From Escherichia coli (GTDB lineage: Bacteria > Pseudomonadota > Gammaproteobacteria > Enterobacterales > Enterobacteriaceae): a DNA stretch of 64,000 nucleotides. The translations under genes and the position numbers were made by a program. Location: the NCBI RefSeq assembly GCF_003334405.1, contig NZ_QOWM01000002.1. One strand, 5' to 3'. This document shows, piece after piece, positions 11,240-31,800 of the stretch. The notes under the pieces were generated by a model, which saw nothing but the letters and a program-made list of their open reading frames with translations, searched no databases and had not been told where the DNA came from. Within the stretch, counting starts at the first letter, position 1. Every line of letters begins with the position of its first letter.

Positions 11240-12130
11240 TTACTTTGTAATGAGATCGGGGTCAACTTCGCTTAACCGGCTTCGTTTTGACAGGTTGCCG
11301 GTCTTTCTTTTTTTCACTTTCGCCAGTTCTTCCGCAGAGTAATGCGACGCGACATCCAGCCGTCGAAGCCCCATTTTGATGTACTCGCTGTTGATCTCAA
11401 TACCAATGAATTTTCGTCCGCTGGCGATGGCTACGGCACCGGTAGTAAAGCTACCAGCAAACGGGTCGAGAACGATATCGCCTGGGTTGGAAGAGGCGAG
11501 AATAATGCGTTTCAGTAAGGCTTCCGGTTTTTGCGTCGGGTGGTTTTCATATTCATCCATCAAATAACGCACGCGCGGAAAATCCCAAACGTTACCCGGT
11601 ACTTTTTGATGATTGTAAGGCTGTGGAGGATTTTTGCGATAATCGATCAACGCGCGCTGCGATCCGGTTTTGGCTTCTACCAGAATAGCATCACCGTTGA
11701 ATGTGTAGTTCTTTGCGTCTTTCACCATCATCAGGATGGGTTCGTACATGGAGCCGTAGTGTTTTTTCGCCTGCACTCCAGAACTGTCATATGACCAGAC
11801 GATGCGACTTTTGATGGTAAAAAGCTTGCGGCACTGGAGATCGATAAAGGGCATGTTTTCCGTACTGTTCATGATGTACATGCTGCCCTGCTTTTTCAGA
11901 ACGCGGTGGCACTCTGCAATCACTTCAAACAGCCAGTCGATAAACAGATCTTCTTTCCAGGCTTCGATCAGACCATCAAAATTTTTACCGATGTTATATG
12001 GTGGGTCGGCAAAGATCAGATCGACACTTTCGGCGGGGATCTTTTTAAGTTCGGCAAGCGCATCACCGTGAATAATGGTCTTAGCTTCATTACCAAACCG
12101 GGTCGGTTCACATCCTGTTCTCATGGTCAC
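11240..12130 (-). CDS. yhdJ: Orphan N6-adenine DNA methyltransferase (beta-class)
   Basis: Motif IV DPPY (FADPPYNIG) near the N-terminus and SAM-binding FxGxG-like motif (DPFAGSFTTG) near the C-terminus; no adjacent restriction endonuclease ORF. Confidence 0.9.
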   Translation of the reverse strand: MTMRTGCEPTRFGNEAKTIIHGDALAELKKIPAESVDLIFADPPYNIGKNFDGLIEAWKEDLFIDWLFEVIAECHRVLKKQGSMYIMNSTENMPFIDLQCRKLFTIKSRIVWSYDSSGVQAKKHYGSMYEPILMMVKDAKNYTFNGDAILVEAKTGSQRALIDYRKNPPQPYNHQKVPGNVWDFPRVRYLMDEYENHPTQKPEALLKRIILASSNPGDIVLDPFAGSFTTGAVAIASGRKFIGIEINSEYIKMGLRRLDVASHYSAEELAKVKKRKTGNLSKRSRLSEVDPDLITK

Positions 12131-12209
12131 TCCCTTTGTGACACCTATAAAAAAGGCGCTTCCCCATGCCGAGTAGCGCCTTTTTAATCAAGCATTTAGC
12201 TAACCTGAA

Positions 12210-12506
12210 TTAGTTCATGCCGTATTTTTTCAATTTTTTACGCAGCGTACCACGGTTGATGCCCATCATCAGCGCAGCACGGGTCTGGTTACCACGGGTG
12301 TATTGCATCACCATGTCCAACAGGGGCTGTTCTACTTCAGCCAGTACCAGCTCATAGAGGTCATTCACATCCTGACCATTCAGTTGAGCAAAATAGTTCT
12401 TCAGTGCCTGTTTAACCGAGTCACGCAGGGGTTTTTGGGTTACCTGATCCTGAGAGTTAACGGTAGAAACGGTCAGTACGTCAGAATTTACGCGTTGTTC
12501 GAACAT
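12210..12506 (-). CDS. fis: Nucleoid-associated protein Fis
   Basis: 98-aa [24 protein letters not shown]...[13 protein letters not shown] with C-terminal HTH. Confidence 0.97.
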
Positions 12507-12531
12507 AGTTCTGTCAGCTCTTTATTTCTGT

Positions 12532-13497
12532 TTACGCAAAATTTTCGAAGTATGCCTCCAACGCCTCCAGCTGTTCGCTGGCATCCTCAATGGCGTTGAA
12601 TGTGCGCCGAAACTGGTCATTTGGAGCGTGTTCCTGGAGATACCAGGAAACGTGTTTACGTGCAATTCGGTACCCTTTTGCCGGACCATAAAAGTCATGC
12701 AGTTCCCGAACGTGCGCGCAAAGCAAGCGCTTAACCTCTGCCAAAGGCAGCGGGGGCAGCAACTCCCCAGTGTCCAGATAATGCTGGATTTCCCGAAAGA
12801 TCCAGGGTCTTCCCTGAGCTGCGCGGCCTATCATCAGGGCATCCGCCCCTGTATAGTCGAGCACAGCTCTGGCTTTAAGCGGGTCAGTAATGTCGCCATT
12901 CGCGATAACCGGAATGGAAACTTTCTGCTTAACTGCCCGAATACTGTCGTACTCAGCTTCTCCATTGAACAAACAGGCGCGTGTACGGCCATGAATGGTC
13001 AGAGCCTGAATGCCACAGTCTTCAGCCAGTTGGGCAATCTCTTCGCAGTTACGGTGTTCCGGTGCCCAGCCGGTGCGAATCTTCAGGGTAACAGGAACGT
13101 CCACTGCATTGACGACCTCGGTAAGGATCGATTTAACGACATCCGGGTACTGCAAGAGGGCTGAACCTGCGAGCTTGCGATTCACTTTTTTAGCCGGGCA
13201 ACCCATATTGATATCAATAATCTGGGCACCGCTTTCCACGTTAATACGTGCTGCATCTGCCATTTCTTTCGGATCGCTACCAGCAATTTGCACGGTGCGA
13301 ATACCGGGTTCATCAATGTGCACCATCCGTAAACGAGATTTGTCGCTTTCCCAAACCTGTGGGTTAGAAGACATCATCTCGGATACTGTCAATCCGGCTC
13401 CCATCTCGTAGCACAACGTCCGAAAAGGTCTGTCTGTAATGCCAGCCATGGGCGCTGCGATCAGGCGATTTCTGAGCTGATATTGTCCGATGCGCAT
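12532..13497 (-). CDS. dusB: tRNA-dihydrouridine synthase B
   Basis: 321-aa ORF, Dus-family flavin TIM-barrel protein immediately upstream of fis in the same operon. Confidence 0.95.
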
Positions 13498-19318: not shown

Positions 19319-20293
19319 TTAGTTAACCTTCACCAGCGTGCGACCCTGGATCTGGTTATTAATGATGGCCTCGGCAAAGTTCGGTGCCTCTGACAGAGAT
19401 ATCTCTTTTGCCGCCTGGGTATAGAATGATTCCGGTAAATCGGCGACCAGTCGCTGCCAGGCTTGTGCGCGGCGTTCTGGTGGCGTCATTACTGAATCCA
19501 CCCCTTGCAAACGGACATTACGCAGAATAAATGGCATGACCGTGGTTGGCAGAGTAAAACCACCCGCCAGACCACAGGCCGCCACGCAGCCGCCGTAATT
19601 CATTTGCGCCAGCACTTTTGCCAGCACTTTGTCGCCAACGGTGTCAATTGCCCCAGCCCAGACTTGTTTTTCCAGAGGACGGGATTCGGCAAACTCATCA
19701 CGAGGGAGAACACGGCTAGCACCTAAACTTTTCAGATATTCATGGGTACTTTCGCGACCGGAAACGGCAACGACCTGATAACCCAACTTATGCAGCAGCG
19801 CCACGGCGGTACTGCCGACGCCACCACTGGCACCCGTCACGACAATCTCCCCGTCCTGCGGGCGAACACCGGCATCTTCCAGCGCCATCACACACAGCAT
19901 GGCGGTAAAACCGGCAGTACCGATAATCATTGCTTTACGCGCGTCCAGCCCTTGCGGCATGGCAACCAGCCAGTCACCTTTCACTCGCGCCTGCTCCGCC
20001 AGCCCACCCCAGTGGTTTTCACCAACGCCCCAGCCAGTGAGTAACACCTCCTGACCGGCATGAAAACGCGGATCTTCGCTGGTGCGTACAGTTCCGGCAA
20101 AATCGATCCCAGGAATCATCGGAAAATTACGGATGATTTTTCCCTTACCGGTAATCGCCAGCGCATCTTTATAGTTCAGGCTCGACCAGTGAACATCGAC
20201 CGTGACATCGCCCTCCGGCAGGCGACTTTCGTCCAGAGTCTGTACTGATGCGAGAGTTTTGCCGTCCTGCTGTTCTAAAAGTAACGCCTGCAT
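19319..20293 (-). CDS. acuI: NADPH-dependent acrylyl-CoA reductase / quinone oxidoreductase-like (MDR superfamily)
   Basis: 324-aa ORF with nucleotide-binding motif TGASGGVGS. Confidence 0.9.
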   Translation of the reverse strand: MQALLLEQQDGKTLASVQTLDESRLPEGDVTVDVHWSSLNYKDALAITGKGKIIRNFPMIPGIDFAGTVRTSEDPRFHAGQEVLLTGWGVGENHWGGLAEQARVKGDWLVAMPQGLDARKAMIIGTAGFTAMLCVMALEDAGVRPQDGEIVVTGASGGVGSTAVALLHKLGYQVVAVSGRESTHEYLKSLGASRVLPRDEFAESRPLEKQVWAGAIDTVGDKVLAKVLAQMNYGGCVAACGLAGGFTLPTTVMPFILRNVRLQGVDSVMTPPERRAQAWQRLVADLPESFYTQAAKEISLSEAPNFAEAIINNQIQGRTLVKVN

Positions 20294-20444
20294 AAGTGGT
20301 CCTCATGTGCATGATGGATTGGAAAATAATTTCTGAAGACTATACTCGCTAATGGAAAAGCAAAGCCGATGAAGCGCAATAAATTGCGAGATAAATCTGA
20401 TTTGCTAGTATGCCCGCTTCCTCACTATCGGAGTTAACACAAGG

Positions 20445-22385
20445 ATGAGATTAACGACGAAATTTTCGGCCTTTGTTACGCTGCTCACCGGGTTAACAAT
20501 TTTTGTGACTTTGCTGGGCTGTTCGCTAAGTTTCTACAACGCCATTCAGTATAAGTTTAGTCATCGCGTTCAGGCGGTGGCGACGGCGATTGATACCCAC
20601 CTTGTGTCGAATGACTTCAGCGTATTAAGGCCACAAATTACCGAATTAATGATGTCGGCAGATATCGTTCGTGTAGACCTGCTCCATGGTGATAAACAGG
20701 TTTATACCCTGGCCAGAAATGGTAGTTATCGTCCAGTTGGCTCCAGCGATCTGTTTCGCGAACTGAGCGTTCCGTTGATAAAGCATCCGGGGATGTCGTT
20801 GCGTCTGGTTTATCAGGATCCGATGGGCAACTATTTCCATTCGTTGATGACCACCGCGCCGCTCACGGGGGCGATTGGCTTTATCATTGTTATGCTCTTC
20901 CTGGCGGTACGCTGGTTACAACGGCAACTTGCCGGGCAAGAATTGCTGGAAACCCGGGCTACTCGTATCTTAAACGGTGAGCGTGGCTCTAATGTGTTGG
21001 GAACCATCTATGAATGGCCGCCCAGAACCAGCAGTGCGCTGGATACGCTGCTTCGTGAAATTCAGAACGCACGCGAACAACACAGCCGTCTTGATACGCT
21101 GATCCGCTCTTATGCCGCCCAGGACGTGAAAACCGGCCTCAATAACCGACTCTTTTTCGATAATCAGTTAGCAACGTTACTGGAAGATCAGGAGAAAGTA
21201 GGTACCCACGGGATCGTGATGATGATTCGTCTGCCGGATTTCAATATGTTGAGCGATACCTGGGGGCACAGCCAGGTTGAAGAACAGTTCTTCACTCTGA
21301 CGAATCTGCTGTCGACATTTATGATGCGCTACCCTGGCGCACTGCTGGCGCGTTACCACCGCAGTGATTTTGCTGCGCTGTTACCGCACCGGACGTTAAA
21401 AGAGGCAGAGAGCATCGCCGGTCAGTTAATCAAAGCCGTTGATACCTTGCCGAACAATAAAATGCTCGATCGCGACGATATGATCCACATTGGTATCTGC
21501 GCCTGGCGTAGTGGTCAGGATACCGAGCAGGTAATGGAACATGCAGAGTCTGCCACGCGTAATGCGGGATTGCAGGGCGGCAATAGCTGGGCTATTTACG
21601 ATGACTCGTTGCCTGAAAAAGGACGCGGTAATGTTCGCTGGCGTACGCTTATCGAGCAAATGCTCAGTCGCGGCGGCCCGCGCCTTTATCAAAAACCGGC
21701 GGTTACTCGCGAAGGTCAGGTTCATCATCGCGAACTCATGTGCCGCATCTTCGATGGTAATGAAGAGGTTAGCTCGGCGGAGTATATGCCGATGGTCTTG
21801 CAGTTTGGCTTATCGGAAGAGTATGACCGTCTGCAAATCAGCCGTCTTATTCCACTATTGCGTTACTGGCCAGAGGAAAATCTGGCGATTCAGGTTACCG
21901 TTGAGTCGCTGATTCGCCCGCGTTTTCAGCGTTGGCTGCGCGATACGTTAATGCAATGTGAAAAATCACAACGAAAACGCATAATTATTGAACTTGCAGA
22001 GGCCGATGTAGGTCAACATATCAGTCGTTTACAACCTGTTATTCGTTTAGTGAATGCTTTAGGGGTACGGGTAGCCGTCAACCAGGCTGGTTTGACGCTG
22101 GTAAGTACCAGTTGGATCAAAGAACTTAATGTTGAGTTACTCAAGCTCCATCCGGGGCTGGTCAGAAACATTGAGAAGCGAACGGAGAACCAGCTGCTGG
22201 TTCAAAGCCTGGTGGAAGCCTGCTCCGGGACCAGCACCCAGGTTTACGCCACCGGCGTGCGTTCGCGAAGCGAGTGGCAGACCCTGATTCAGCGCGGTGT
22301 TACAGGCGGGCAAGGGGATTTTTTCGCGTCCTCACAGCCACTTGATACTAACGTGAAAAAATATTCACAAAGATACTCGGTTTAA
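20445..22385 (+). CDS. csrD: CsrB/CsrC sRNA turnover factor with degenerate GGDEF-EAL domains
   Basis: 646-aa ORF, N-terminal TM region; GGDEF position reads HRSDF and EAL position reads ELM. Confidence 0.9.
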   Translation: MRLTTKFSAFVTLLTGLTIFVTLLGCSLSFYNAIQYKFSHRVQAVATAIDTHLVSNDFSVLRPQITELMMSADIVRVDLLHGDKQVYTLARNGSYRPVGSSDLFRELSVPLIKHPGMSLRLVYQDPMGNYFHSLMTTAPLTGAIGFIIVMLFLAVRWLQRQLAGQELLETRATRILNGERGSNVLGTIYEWPPRTSSALDTLLREIQNAREQHSRLDTLIRSYAAQDVKTGLNNRLFFDNQLATLLEDQEKVGTHGIVMMIRLPDFNMLSDTWGHSQVEEQFFTLTNLLSTFMMRYPGALLARYHRSDFAALLPHRTLKEAESIAGQLIKAVDTLPNNKMLDRDDMIHIGICAWRSGQDTEQVMEHAESATRNAGLQGGNSWAIYDDSLPEKGRGNVRWRTLIEQMLSRGGPRLYQKPAVTREGQVHHRELMCRIFDGNEEVSSAEYMPMVLQFGLSEEYDRLQISRLIPLLRYWPEENLAIQVTVESLIRPRFQRWLRDTLMQCEKSQRKRIIIELAEADVGQHISRLQPVIRLVNALGVRVAVNQAGLTLVSTSWIKELNVELLKLHPGLVRNIEKRTENQLLVQSLVEACSGTSTQVYATGVRSRSEWQTLIQRGVTGGQGDFFASSQPLDTNVKKYSQRYSV

Positions 22386-22563
22386 CCTGCCGTTTAATCC
22401 GTTTTCACGTAGAATAACGCGCGCTGCGTCTCATGGGAGTGTGCTTGTCTGCTCGCCAGATTGTTGCAGCACATATGCAGATGAATGACCTTACGCGGTT
22501 GCAAACAGGCGAGGAATGCTGCTGATGCATTAAGCCTTTCTGGACTCAGGCAGAGATTTGTAA

Positions 22564-23733
<1,170 letters not shown>

Positions 23734-25398: not shown

Positions 25399-25992
25399 AT
25401 GACTTCTCTGTATTTAGCTTCCGGTTCTCCGCGTCGTCAGGAGTTACTTGCGCAACTTGGCGTGACCTTTGAACGTATTGTTACGGGCATTGAGGAGCAG
25501 CGTCAGCCGCAGGAGAGCGCGCAGCAGTATGTTGTGCGTCTGGCGCGCGAGAAAGCACGGGCAGGTGTCGCGCAAACGGCGAAGGATCTCCCGGTGCTGG
25601 GTGCGGATACTATCGTTATCCTGAACGGAGAAGTGCTGGAGAAACCGCGCGACGCAGAGCATGCGGCGCAGATGTTGCGCAAATTATCGGGTCAGACCCA
25701 TCAGGTGATGACAGCAGTGGCGTTGGCCGACAGCCAGCACATTCTCGATTGCCTGGTGGTCACCGATGTGACTTTCAGAACGTTAACAGACGAAGACATC
25801 GCGGGCTATGTCGCCAGCGATGAACCGTTAGATAAAGCAGGTGCATACGGTATTCAGGGGCTGGGTGGCTGTTTTGTCAGGAAGATAAATGGCAGCTATC
25901 ACGCCGTAGTCGGCTTACCGCTGGTTGAAACGTATGAATTATTAAGTAATTTTAACGCACTGCATGAGAAAAGGGATAAACATGACGGCTGA
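25399..25992 (+). CDS. yhdE: Maf-family nucleotide pyrophosphatase
   Basis: Starts [22 protein letters not shown] (ORF track begins 20 codons upstream at 25339). Confidence 0.9.
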
Positions 25993-27451
25993 ATTGTTAG
26001 TAAACGTAACGCCTTCGGAAACGCGAGTGGCGTATATTGATGGCGGTATTCTGCAGGAAATTCATATTGAACGTGAGGCGCGACGCGGAATAGTAGGCAA
26101 TATCTACAAGGGTCGTGTAAGTCGTGTACTTCCGGGTATGCAGGCGGCTTTTGTAGATATTGGGCTGGATAAAGCCGCGTTTCTTCATGCATCCGACATC
26201 ATGCCGCACACCGAATGTGTGGCGGGTGAAGAACAAAAGCAATTCACGGTGCGCGACATCTCGGAACTGGTTCGTCAGGGGCAAGATCTGATGGTGCAGG
26301 TGGTGAAAGATCCGCTTGGCACTAAAGGTGCGCGCCTGACCACCGATATCACGCTCCCTTCTCGCTATCTGGTGTTTATGCCAGGGGCTTCTCACGTTGG
26401 GGTTTCCCAACGTATTGAAAGCGAATCAGAACGTGAACGCCTGAAAAAAGTGGTCGCAGAGTATTGCGACGAGCAGGGCGGGTTTATCATCCGTACCGCA
26501 GCGGAAGGGGTTGGCGAGGCTGAACTGGCCTCCGATGCCGCTTATCTGAAACGCGTCTGGACCAAAGTTATGGAGCGTAAAAAACGCCCGCAGACCCGTT
26601 ATCAGCTGTACGGCGAACTGGCGCTGGCGCAGCGTGTTCTGCGTGATTTCGCCGATGCCGAACTGGACCGCATTCGCGTTGACTCACGCCTGACTTACGA
26701 AGCGTTACTTGAGTTCACCTCGGAGTACATTCCCGAGATGACAAGCAAGCTGGAGCATTACACAGGACGCCAGCCGATTTTCGATCTCTTTGATGTCGAA
26801 AACGAAATCCAGCGAGCGCTGGAACGCAAAGTAGAACTGAAATCCGGTGGTTATCTCATTATCGACCAGACCGAAGCGATGACCACCGTGGACATCAATA
26901 CCGGAGCGTTTGTCGGTCATCGCAATCTGGACGACACCATTTTCAATACCAATATTGAAGCGACGCAGGCTATCGCTCGCCAGTTACGGTTGCGTAATCT
27001 GGGCGGGATTATCATTATTGATTTCATCGATATGAATAATGAAGATCACCGCCGCCGAGTGCTGCACTCGCTGGAGCAGGCGTTGAGCAAAGACCGGGTG
27101 AAAACCAGCGTTAATGGTTTTTCGGCGCTGGGGCTGGTGGAGATGACGCGTAAACGCACCCGCGAAAGCATTGAGCACGTACTGTGTAACGAATGCCCAA
27201 CCTGCCACGGTCGCGGAACGGTGAAAACCGTGGAAACGGTATGCTATGAAATCATGCGCGAGATTGTTCGTGTCCACCATGCTTACGACTCCGACCGTTT
27301 CCTGGTCTATGCTTCTCCGGCAGTAGCTGAAGCCTTGAAAGGCGAAGAGTCACACTCGCTGGCGGAAGTGGAAATTTTCGTTGGCAAACAGGTTAAAGTA
27401 CAAATTGAACCGCTCTATAACCAGGAGCAGTTTGACGTCGTAATGATGTAA
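25982..27451 (+). CDS. rng: Ribonuclease G
   Basis: RNase E/G-family protein starting [22 protein letters not shown]; start overlaps the maf stop. Confidence 0.94.
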
Positions 27452-30500: not shown

Positions 30501-31319
30501 GCCCAAATACGATGCACAGAGTGCTGGTTCTGGGGGCAAAAATTCGGTCGCATTGACAGTGATATCACCATTTCTGGCGATACGTTAACGCTGACCAATG
30601 GACTGATTGATACTGGTTTCTCGCGGCTTACTGCCGATGGTGAATGGGTTAATAATCCGGGGAATGAACGTACCTCGCTGAAAGGAAAACTGCGCGGGCA
30701 GAAAATTGATGCCGCCGCAGAATTTTTTGGTGTCACGACGCCCATACGCCAGTCGTCATTTAATGTGGATTACGATTTACACTGGCGCAAAGCACCCTGG
30801 CAGCCAGATGAAGCGACGTTGAATGGCATCATTCATACTCAACTGGGTAAAGGCGAAATTACCGAAATCAATACCGGACATGCCGGGCAATTGCTGCGCT
30901 TATTGAGCGTAGATGCCCTGATGCGTAAGCTGCGTTTTGATTTCAGAGACACTTTTGGCGAAGGGTTCTATTTTGACTCCATTCGCAGCACCGCGTGGAT
31001 TAAAGACGGCGTTATGCACACCGACGACACGCTGGTGGATGGCCTGGAGGCGGATATCGCCATGAAAGGGTCGGTAAATCTGGTACGTCGCGACCTGAAT
31101 ATGGAAGCGGTTGTCGCACCAGAGATTTCTGCGACGGTGGGCGTGGCTGCGGCTTTTGCGGTTAACCCCATTGTTGGCGCGGCAGTGTTTGCCGCCAGTA
31201 AAGTGCTGGGGCCGCTGTGGAGCAAAGTCTCCATTTTGCGCTATCACATTTCGGGTCCGCTGGACGATCCGCAAATCAACGAAGTGTTGCGCCAACCGCG
31301 TAAAGAAAAAGCGCAATGA
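27519..31319 (+). CDS. yhdP: AsmA-like large envelope-spanning protein
   Basis: 1266-aa ORF with a single N-terminal TM helix and long beta-rich periplasmic region. Confidence 0.9.
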   Translation: MRRLPGILLLTGAALVVIAALLVSGLRIALPHLDAWRPEILNKIESATGMPVEASQLSASWQNFGPTLEAHDIRAELKDGGEFSVKRVTLALDVWQSLLHMRWQFRDLTFWQLRFRTNTPITSGGSDDSLEASHISDLFLRQFDHFDLRDSEVSFLTPSGQRAELAIPQLTWLNDPRRHRAEGLVSLSSLTGQHGVMQVRMDLRDDEGLLSNGRVWLQADDIDLKPWLGKWMQDNIALETAQFSLEGWMTIDKGDVTGGDVWLKQGGASWLGEKQTHTLSVDNLTAHITRENPGWQFSIPDTRITMDGKPWPSGALTLAWIPEQDVGGKDNKRSDELRIRASNLELAGLEGIRPLAAKLSPALGDVWRSTQPSGKINTLALDIPLQAADKTRFQASWSDLAWKQWKLLPGAEHFSGTLSGSVENGLLTASMKQAKMPYETVFRAPLEIADGQATISWLNNNKGFQLDGRNIDVKAKAVHARGGFRYLQPANDEPWLGILAGISTDDGSQAWRYFPENLMGKDLVDYLSGAIQGGEADNATLVYGGNPQLFPYKHNEGQFEVLVPLRNAKFAFQPDWPALTNLDIELDFINDGLWMKTDGVNLGGVRASNLTAVIPDYSKEKLLIDADIKGPGKAVGPYFDETPLKDSLGATLQELQLDGDVNARLHLDIPLNGELVTAKGEVTLRNNSLFIKPLDSTLKNLSGKFSFINSDLQSEPLTASWFNQPLNVDFSTKEGAKAYQVAVNLNGNWQPAKTGVLPEAVNEALSGSVAWDGKVGIDLPYHAGATYNIELNGDLKNVSSHLPSPLAKPAGEPLAVNVKVDGNLNSFELTGQAGADNHFNSRWLLGQKLTLDRAIWAADSKTLPPLPEQSGVELNMPPMNGAEWLALFQKGAAESVGGAASFPQHITLRTPMLSLGNQQWNNLSIVSQPTANGTLVEAQGREINATLAMRNNAPWLANIKYLYYNPSVAKTRGDSTPSSPFPTTERINFRGWPDAQIRCTECWFWGQKFGRIDSDITISGDTLTLTNGLIDTGFSRLTADGEWVNNPGNERTSLKGKLRGQKIDAAAEFFGVTTPIRQSSFNVDYDLHWRKAPWQPDEATLNGIIHTQLGKGEITEINTGHAGQLLRLLSVDALMRKLRFDFRDTFGEGFYFDSIRSTAWIKDGVMHTDDTLVDGLEADIAMKGSVNLVRRDLNMEAVVAPEISATVGVAAAFAVNPIVGAAVFAASKVLGPLWSKVSILRYHISGPLDDPQINEVLRQPRKEKAQ

Positions 31320-31334
31320 TTTGACGAGGGCGCG

Positions 31335-31800
31335 TAATTGCCCCAATCTCATAGGATAATCGTTGCCAAAGGCCAACGAGCCAGAACATAACCGTAGGTC
31401 GGATAGGGCGTTCACGCCGCATCCGGCAGCCGTTGCCTGATGCGACGCTGTGCGTCTTATCAGGCCTACAAACGGAACATAACCGTAGGTCGGATAAGGC
31501 GTTTACGCCGCATCCGGCAGCCGTTGCCTGATGCGACGCTGTGCGTCTTATCAGGCCTACAAACGGAACATAACCGTAGGTCGGATAAGGCGTTTACGCC
31601 GCATCCGGCAGCCGTTGCCTGATGCGACGCTGTGCGTCTTATCAGGCCTACAAACGGAACATAACCGTAGGTCGGATAAGGCGTTTACGCCGCATCCGAC
31701 AGCCGTTGCCTGATGCGACGCTGTGCGTCTTATCAGGCCTACAAACCGGAACATAACCGTAGGCTGGATAGGGCGTTCACGCCGCATCCGGCAGCCGTAA
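31335..31800. repeat. REP/BIME cluster: about 5 tandem copies of a ~91-bp unit, each with two REP palindromes
   Basis: Unit GAACATAACCGTAGGTCGGATAAGGCGTTTACGCCGCATCCGGCAGCCGTTGCCTGATGCGACGCTGTGCGTCTTATCAGGCCTACAAACG recurs at 31384, 31475, 31566, 31657 and 31749. Confidence 0.88.

Follow-up and report, generated by a model that had tools for sequence, protein, structure and literature searches.

CsrD of Escherichia coli, whose gene csrD was formerly named yhdA, has been a characterised protein since 2006, and the literature already includes its degenerate GGDEF and EAL motifs, HRSDF and ELM. Here, we analyse the copy of csrD carried by a stretch of 64 000 nucleotides of E. coli DNA (contig NZ_QOWM01000002.1 of assembly GCF_003334405.1; hereafter the window) and compare its product with the closest described systems. 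CsrD has been presented as the degenerate GGDEF-EAL protein of E. coli, with a GGDEF domain that contacts the GGDEF domain of DgcT (Sarenko et al., PMC5635695), and its HRSDF motif is recorded in a 2026 review (PMC12910134). The protein is not a nuclease, the turnover of the RNAs CsrB and CsrC requiring RNase E and PNPase, and neither synthesis nor hydrolysis of cyclic dimeric guanosine monophosphate (c-di-GMP) is reported for it (PMC5027483, PMC5876332). CsrA bound at two 3' sites of CsrB keeps a necessary cleavage site out of reach of RNase E, and CsrD is needed for CsrB decay because of this shielding; unphosphorylated EIIA-Glc binds the EAL domain of CsrD and thereby activates CsrB/C decay during glucose transport (PMC5027483, PMC5876332). 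In two-hybrid assays, CsrD interacts with RNase E constructs that contain residues 499-597, the membrane-targeting region (PMC13232886).

The CsrD orthologue of Erwinia amylovora has the same GAPES4-GGDEF-EAL architecture, a degenerate GGDEF motif and a role in RNase E-dependent CsrB decay. However, it reads EIL at the EAL position, with the Leu intact, and binds c-di-GMP, whereas the E. coli protein has a Met there and shows no binding (PMC9276943). LapD, represented by the structures from Pseudomonas fluorescens (3pjw) and Vibrio cholerae (6pwj), is both the best sequence match of CsrD in the PDB (E 1.6e-32) and, in its apo form, the best structural match. The two proteins share the succession of a transmembrane helix, a periplasmic domain, a second transmembrane helix, a linker, a degenerate GGDEF domain and a degenerate EAL domain. 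However, LapD is an inside-out receptor of c-di-GMP that controls the periplasmic protease LapG, whereas the binding partner of E. coli CsrD is EIIA-Glc and the process on which it acts is RNA decay; moreover, the periplasmic domain of CsrD is GAPES4, and the N-terminal domain of LapD was not found in a Pfam scan of CsrD. FimX of P. aeruginosa and Xanthomonas also resembles CsrD in sequence and fold through its tandem degenerate GGDEF-EAL domains, but it is cytoplasmic, carries REC/PAS domains at its N terminus, binds c-di-GMP through an EAL domain reading EVL and regulates type IV pili.

The csrD open reading frame of the window (20445-22385, + strand) comprises 1941 nucleotides from its ATG start to its stop codon and encodes 646 amino acids, both ends agreeing exactly with the RefSeq annotation of csrD. 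Its DNA is 100% identical to the annotated csrD ('RNase E specificity factor CsrD') of many E. coli genomes, among them those of the K-12-derived strains ER1709 and XL10-Gold. The comparison with E. coli K-12 CsrD (YhdA; WP_001241469.1; NF008281) gave identity in DNA, length, neighbouring genes, layout and the HRSDF and ELM motifs, so that this is the same gene without any difference. The protein scores 974.2 bits against the NCBIfam CsrD equivalog model NF008281, whose cut-off is 663, in a match between its residues 2-633 and positions 1-632 of a profile of 633 positions; the second-best NCBIfam model, that of LapD (NF045673), gives 167.4 bits, far under its cut-off of 1020. A copy of csrD (at least 80% of the gene covered, 95-100% identity) is present in all of the 5426 complete E. 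coli genomes. The locus is thus almost certainly an intact and functional E. coli csrD, encoding a non-enzymatic specificity factor whose two cytoplasmic domains are folded but devoid of the residues required to make or break c-di-GMP. The gene is already known and well studied, and nothing in our analysis contradicts its identification or its degeneracy. Although it carries little weight as a discovery, csrD can serve as a calibration case, in which degenerate signalling motifs can be found from raw DNA.

In an earlier note on this DNA, made from the letters alone, the GGDEF position was read as HRSDF and the EAL position as ELM. HRSDF corresponds to residues 305-309 (nucleotides 21357-21371), in the context ARYHRSDFAALLP, and ELM to residues 430-432 (nucleotides 21732-21740), in the context HHRELMCRIF. 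A second ELM tripeptide, at residues 67-69 in the periplasmic domain, is a chance match; since the string recurs in this way, it is uninformative by itself and only the homologous position counts. Both assignments were borne out by independent alignments. With phmmer, aRyHRSDFaallP of CsrD pairs with aRmGGDEFtlllP of MorA from P. aeruginosa, a GGDEF-EAL enzyme of solved structure, and hrELMcRi pairs with gaEALlRw. In MAFFT alignments, RYHRSDF stands opposite RYGGEEF of DgcZ and RYGGDEF of DosC, two active E. coli cyclases, and ELMCR stands opposite EALAR of DosP, EVLLR of PdeK and ELLTV of PdeH. The same placement was obtained with an AlphaFold2 model of CsrD built from an alignment of 60 relatives without templates (mean predicted local distance difference test, pLDDT, 90.7; predicted template modelling score, pTM, 0.78). 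In this model, the strands 300-305 and 308-314 form a hairpin with a turn at 306-307, residues 294-299 form a loop, and H305-F309 are thereby predicted to occupy the canonical active-site beta-hairpin of GGDEF domains. The strings GG[DE]EF, EAL, EVL, EIL, DDFG and EGVE were all absent from a search of the whole CsrD protein, and neither this search nor the alignments revealed intact catalytic motifs elsewhere in CsrD.

We compared the GGDEF domain residue by residue with the active cyclases DgcZ and DosC, and the EAL domain with the active phosphodiesterases DosP, PdeK and PdeH (Table 1). The roles of the substrate- and metal-binding residues of cyclases are established knowledge for PleD-type enzymes. 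All five enzymes have GGDEF or EAL folds like those of CsrD and align with it over the whole domains. However, DgcZ and DosC carry GG(D/E)EF together with the Mg- and guanine-contacting residues, and DosP, PdeK and PdeH carry the full E...N...ExxE...DD...K...EGVE...Q series, whereas CsrD is incomplete in both respects. A total of nine catalytic or binding positions of DgcZ, DosC, DosP, PdeK and PdeH are lost in CsrD. Judged by its residues, CsrD would not be an active diguanylate cyclase, as the motif, the upstream Mg and substrate residues and the RxxD site are all missing.

The picture for the EAL domain is more nuanced. The earlier note had taken ELM as a sign that the phosphodiesterase motif is not intact; the EAL position is indeed degenerate, but ELM alone does not prove inactivity. 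It is weak evidence of lost activity because the Glu of the motif (E430) is kept and because the active enzyme PdeH reads ELL. The loss of phosphodiesterase activity would follow instead from the replacement of the metal-ligand Asn by Q483, of the Asp-Asp pair by N546 and Q547, and of the glutamates of EGVE by T603 and R606. Through these replacements, the two-metal site of the EAL domain is predicted to be disabled, and EAL domains that lack the EGVE catalytic base have explicitly been treated as inactive before (PMC12900916). For catalysis, the informative losses are those at 483, 546-547 and 603-606, whereas for receptor function the informative residue is the Met at position 432. More generally, a variant EAL tripeptide is no proof of an inactive phosphodiesterase, and the metal-ligand Asn, the Asp-Asp pair and the EGVE base need to be checked as well.

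These residues also bear on the idea that, in spite of its altered motifs, CsrD might still work as a cyclase or phosphodiesterase in a cryptic or conditional manner. Variant motifs are compatible with activity in other proteins: PdeH works with ELL, Zymomonas has active domains reading GNDEF and GGDQF, and catalytic activity has been mentioned for CsrD-like proteins of other Enterobacteriaceae (PMC12900916). However, the changes are much more extensive than single conservative substitutions: the GGDEF domain of CsrD lacks both Gly residues of the motif and has R262 for the Mg-binding Asp and S270 for the Asn, the EAL domain lacks the Asn, both Asp residues and the catalytic-base Glu, and no synthesis or hydrolysis is reported in the literature cited above. 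We consequently give hardly any credence to a residual enzymatic activity.

A second question is whether E. coli CsrD could still act as a c-di-GMP receptor of the LapD, FimX or Erwinia type, coupling a signal sensed in the degenerate EAL pocket to CsrB/C decay. The pocket keeps E430, R434, E516, E519, K567 and Q623, and the closest solved structures are those of the c-di-GMP receptors LapD and FimX. Moreover, CsrD of Erwinia amylovora (FRSDF and EIL) binds c-di-GMP via its E-x-L-x-R motif with a Kd of ~4 uM (PMC9276943). In E. coli, however, this motif is not intact, M432 standing in place of the Leu, and the L435M substitution that mimics the E. coli ELM in the Erwinia protein abolishes binding; neither this variant nor purified E. 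coli K-12 CsrD showed detectable binding in pull-down experiments (PMC9276943), and a response to c-di-GMP was not seen in earlier work either (PMC5027483). Furthermore, the Asn at 483, the Asp at 546 and the Glu at 606, lost in E. coli, are kept by 71-86% of its relatives. A receptor role of the E. coli protein is thus very improbable. The claim of the earlier note that CsrD works through the turnover of CsrB and CsrC is in accordance with the literature for E. coli, and so is its wording 'rather than c-di-GMP chemistry'; however, the latter does not extend to the whole family, given the binding observed with the Erwinia protein.

We then considered the family as a whole. An exhaustive HMMER search, run against 1.84 billion representatives, yielded 230 matches below 1e-30, and residues were counted in the 93 full-length representatives of 50% clusters among the top 150 matches. 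The closest representatives (P0004, P0007, P0010 and P0013) score above the CsrD cut-off and the more distant ones below it, P0075 scoring higher against LapD. None of the 93 full-length representatives has GG[DE]EF, either at the aligned position or elsewhere, and none has the complete EAL catalytic set. The EAL Asn is kept by 85% of them, the first Asp of DDFG by 71% and the second Glu of EGVE by 86%; the second Asp of DDFG is kept by only 2% and the Mg-binding Asp of the GGDEF domain by only 1%. Degeneracy is thus graded over the CsrD/LapD-like neighbourhood, the E. coli clade being further along than most. In the 60-sequence alignment, R303, R434, E516, E519, G549, K567, A602 and Q623 are invariant or nearly so; these are non-catalytic residues and remnants of the pocket, and a conserved binding surface would be expected to show such a pattern.

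The degenerate domains could also be regarded as evolutionary debris in a decaying or dispensable gene, a view that would accord with the wide variation of the motif positions among orthologues and with the IS1 insertion carried by csrD of E. coli strain EcPF16. However, csrD was found, with at least 80% of its length, in each of the 5426 genomes, the domain hidden Markov models score strongly, the fold is predicted with confidence, and non-catalytic positions are nearly invariant across the 60 relatives. Moreover, the comparison with the 97.8%-identical allele of E. coli strain E138 gave 28 synonymous and 13 non-synonymous codon differences, with a ratio of non-synonymous to synonymous polymorphism (pN/pS) of 0.14, and the motif substitutions are all unchanged in that allele. 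The probability that these domains are debris is therefore vanishingly small: csrD is under purifying selection, and its degenerate domains are repurposed and not a decaying relic.

Some individual genomes depart from the common pattern. In EcPF16, csrD (NZ_CP054224.1, 510547-513264) is matched in two pieces over 2718 bp and not 1941; an IS1A-family transposase is annotated inside the gene and the 3' part has an annotation of its own, 'EAL domain-containing protein', so that the locus looks like a natural disruption of csrD by IS1. The csrD matches lie in 5428 places in the 5426 genomes, one of the places being on a plasmid. In E. coli O18ac:H14 strain 873.10 (NZ_CP061754.1), csrD occupies two places, and the best piece is limited to nucleotides 179-1941 of the gene; an insertion, a duplication or a misassembly could be the cause.

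A fold search of the CsrD model against the PDB with Foldseek gave apo LapD as the closest structure, 3pjw with an E value of 1.1e-27, a target-normalised template modelling (TM) score of 0.87 and a root mean square deviation (rmsd) of 3.2 A over 428 columns, and 6pwj_A with a TM score of 0.89; for these best matches, the rmsd was ~3.1-3.2 A over ~425 columns. The c-di-GMP-bound form of LapD (6pwk) reached a TM score of only 0.56-0.59, and the whole module compared with the active tandem enzymes MorA, PA0575, PA0861 and DosP gave TM scores of 0.3-0.55. The isolated EAL domain of CsrD matched the EAL domains of LapD and FimX with TM scores of 0.8-0.9. The S-helix-GGDEF-EAL module of CsrD, as predicted, is thus closest to the apo, autoinhibited arrangement of LapD. 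Tentatively, and with the odds rather against it, the cytoplasmic module of CsrD might be a LapD-style switch with an exchanged trigger. Binding of EIIA-Glc at the EAL domain, and not of c-di-GMP, would release the closed state, with a surface for RNase E or for CsrA-CsrB becoming exposed, or with a transmembrane signal via GAPES4; the E. coli lineage would then have become uncoupled from c-di-GMP through the single Leu to Met change at 432.

According to the published work, the following chain of events would apply. Upon glucose uptake, unphosphorylated EIIA-Glc would bind the EAL domain of CsrD, and CsrD would contact RNase E at its membrane-targeting region; the shielding by CsrA of a required cleavage site close to the CsrB/CsrC 3' end would thereby be overcome, and CsrB/CsrC would be degraded with the release of CsrA.

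Several observations weigh against parts of this interpretation. The mechanism is incomplete: CsrD binds CsrB only non-specifically in vitro and, even together with EIIA-Glc, it does not stimulate the cleavage of CsrA-protected CsrB by RNase E in vitro (PMC5027483). Likewise, LapD-like switching rests on a predicted structure, and the training of AlphaFold on crystal structures of LapD may have influenced the model. Finally, a BLASTP alignment of the GGDEF region of CsrD with DosC pairs R295-Y-P-G298 with RYGG and, after a gap of eight residues, S307-D-F with DEF. We rejected this gapped placement of RYPG opposite RYGG, as no such gap is required when CsrD is aligned with four other proteins by phmmer and MAFFT, the orthologues have no insertion or deletion there, and the model puts residues 294-299 in a loop and the hairpin at 300-305/308-314. 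The gapped placement too yields no GG(D/E)EF in CsrD.

CsrD is an inner-membrane protein consisting of a transmembrane helix, the periplasmic GAPES4 domain, a second transmembrane helix, a helical linker, and the GGDEF and EAL domains. The transmembrane helices were predicted from Kyte-Doolittle hydropathy in 19-residue windows with a score > 1.6. In the AlphaFold model, a continuous helix spans residues 134-176 and a further helix residues 193-225. A HAMP domain has been described for CsrD in the literature; no Pfam HAMP match was obtained at E <= 10. The Pfam matches of the GGDEF and EAL domains greatly exceed what chance would give, and the coordinates of all features are listed in Table 1.

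Table 1. Features of csrD in the window and residues of CsrD at positions compared with DgcZ and DosC (GGDEF domain) or with DosP, PdeK and PdeH (EAL domain)
Feature	Residues in CsrD	Position in window	Strand	Basis or remark
csrD coding sequence	646 residues and stop	20445-22385	+	Open reading frame list, DNA identity, NF008281
Predicted transmembrane helix 1	~6-31	20460-20537	+	Hydropathy windows start at residues 6-13; helical in AlphaFold model; limits approximate
Periplasmic GAPES4 domain	34-130	20544-20834	+	Pfam PF17157, E 1.8e-35
Predicted transmembrane helix 2	~133-159	20841-20921	+	Hydropathy windows start at residues 133-141; limits approximate
Helical linker (HAMP-like/S-helix region)	160-223	20922-21113	+	AlphaFold helices; pairs with S helix of apo LapD in fold search
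Degenerate GGDEF domain	224-380	21114-21584	+	Pfam PF00990, E 6.7e-33
Mg-binding Asp	R262			D in DgcZ and DosC
Second Asp	P264			D in DgcZ and DosC
Lys	N267			K in DgcZ and DosC
Guanine-contacting Asn	S270			N in DgcZ and DosC
G-D pair	V278, E279			G, D in DgcZ and DosC
RxxD I-site (optional; five residues upstream of motif)	Y296-P-G-A299			RSSD in DosC
HRSDF at the GG(D/E)EF active-site hairpin	H305-R306-S307-D308-F309	21357-21371	+	GGEEF in DgcZ, GGDEF in DosC; alignments, AlphaFold hairpin
Degenerate EAL domain	403-628	21651-22328	+	Pfam PF00563, E 1.4e-37
ELMCR at the E-x-L-x-R/EAL motif	430-434	21732-21746	+	E430 and R434 kept; M432 in place of Leu
Glu of EAL	E430			Kept; E in DosP (EAL), PdeK (EVL) and PdeH (ELL)
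Arg of ExLxR	R434			Kept; R in references (V in PdeH)
Metal-ligand Asn	Q483	21891-21893	+	Lost; LAIQVTV against LSVNLSA
ExxE glutamates	E516, E519			Kept; E, E in references
DDFG	N546-Q547-A548-G549 (NQAG)	22080-22091	+	Lost, G kept; D, D, F, G in all three enzymes
Catalytic Lys	K567			Kept; K in references
Asp after Lys	H569			Lost; D in references (A in PdeH)
EGVE	T603-G-V-R606 (TGVR)	22251-22262	+	Catalytic base lost; EGVE in all three enzymes
Gln-Gly	Q623, G624			Kept; Q, G in references

The start codon of csrD lies inside ACACAAGGATGA (20437-20448, + strand), which agrees at 10 of 12 positions with RUACARGGAUGU, the sequence that we take to be the CsrA consensus from systematic evolution of ligands by exponential enrichment (SELEX). 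Such a site fits the modest repression of csrD by CsrA that has been reported (PMC5027483). As a candidate CsrA site, it was nonetheless set aside for its lack of statistical weight: with up to two mismatches allowed, the window contains 11 matches against 10.96 expected. A scan of positions 20200-22700 for promoters and terminators gave counts no higher than those of shuffled sequence.

According to the annotation of ER1709, with which the open reading frames of the window agree, csrD is flanked upstream by the divergent acuI and downstream by mreB, mreC, mreD, yhdE and rng. In the list of longest open reading frames, mreB starts at a TTG at 22615 (22615-23733, + strand, 372 amino acids); RefSeq gives a gene of 1044 nucleotides (positions 8246-9289 of the ER1709 locus, corresponding to 22690-23733 of the window), and the start at 22615 is an artefact of the choice of the longest frame, not a real N-terminal extension. 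The rng gene encodes RNase G, a paralogue of RNase E, and lies five genes 3' of csrD on the same strand (~25964-27451, + strand; 11538-13007 of the ER1709 locus). Its proximity to csrD is probably coincidental, since no interaction of CsrD with RNase G was seen in the two-hybrid assays, which were also negative for RNase III (PMC13232886).

Elsewhere in the window, the tail of an rRNA operon occupies positions 1-351 (+ strand), with a 5S gene cut at the window start, a tRNA at 121-193 and a second 5S gene at 236-351. Four tandem copies of naRNA4, the Rfam family of nucleoid-associated RNA elements of the REP/BIME type (repetitive extragenic palindrome/bacterial interspersed mosaic element), are found at 31397-31739 (+ strand) with scores of 71-77 bits and a spacing of ~91 bp, the array being located in the gap that follows a long open reading frame ending at 31319.

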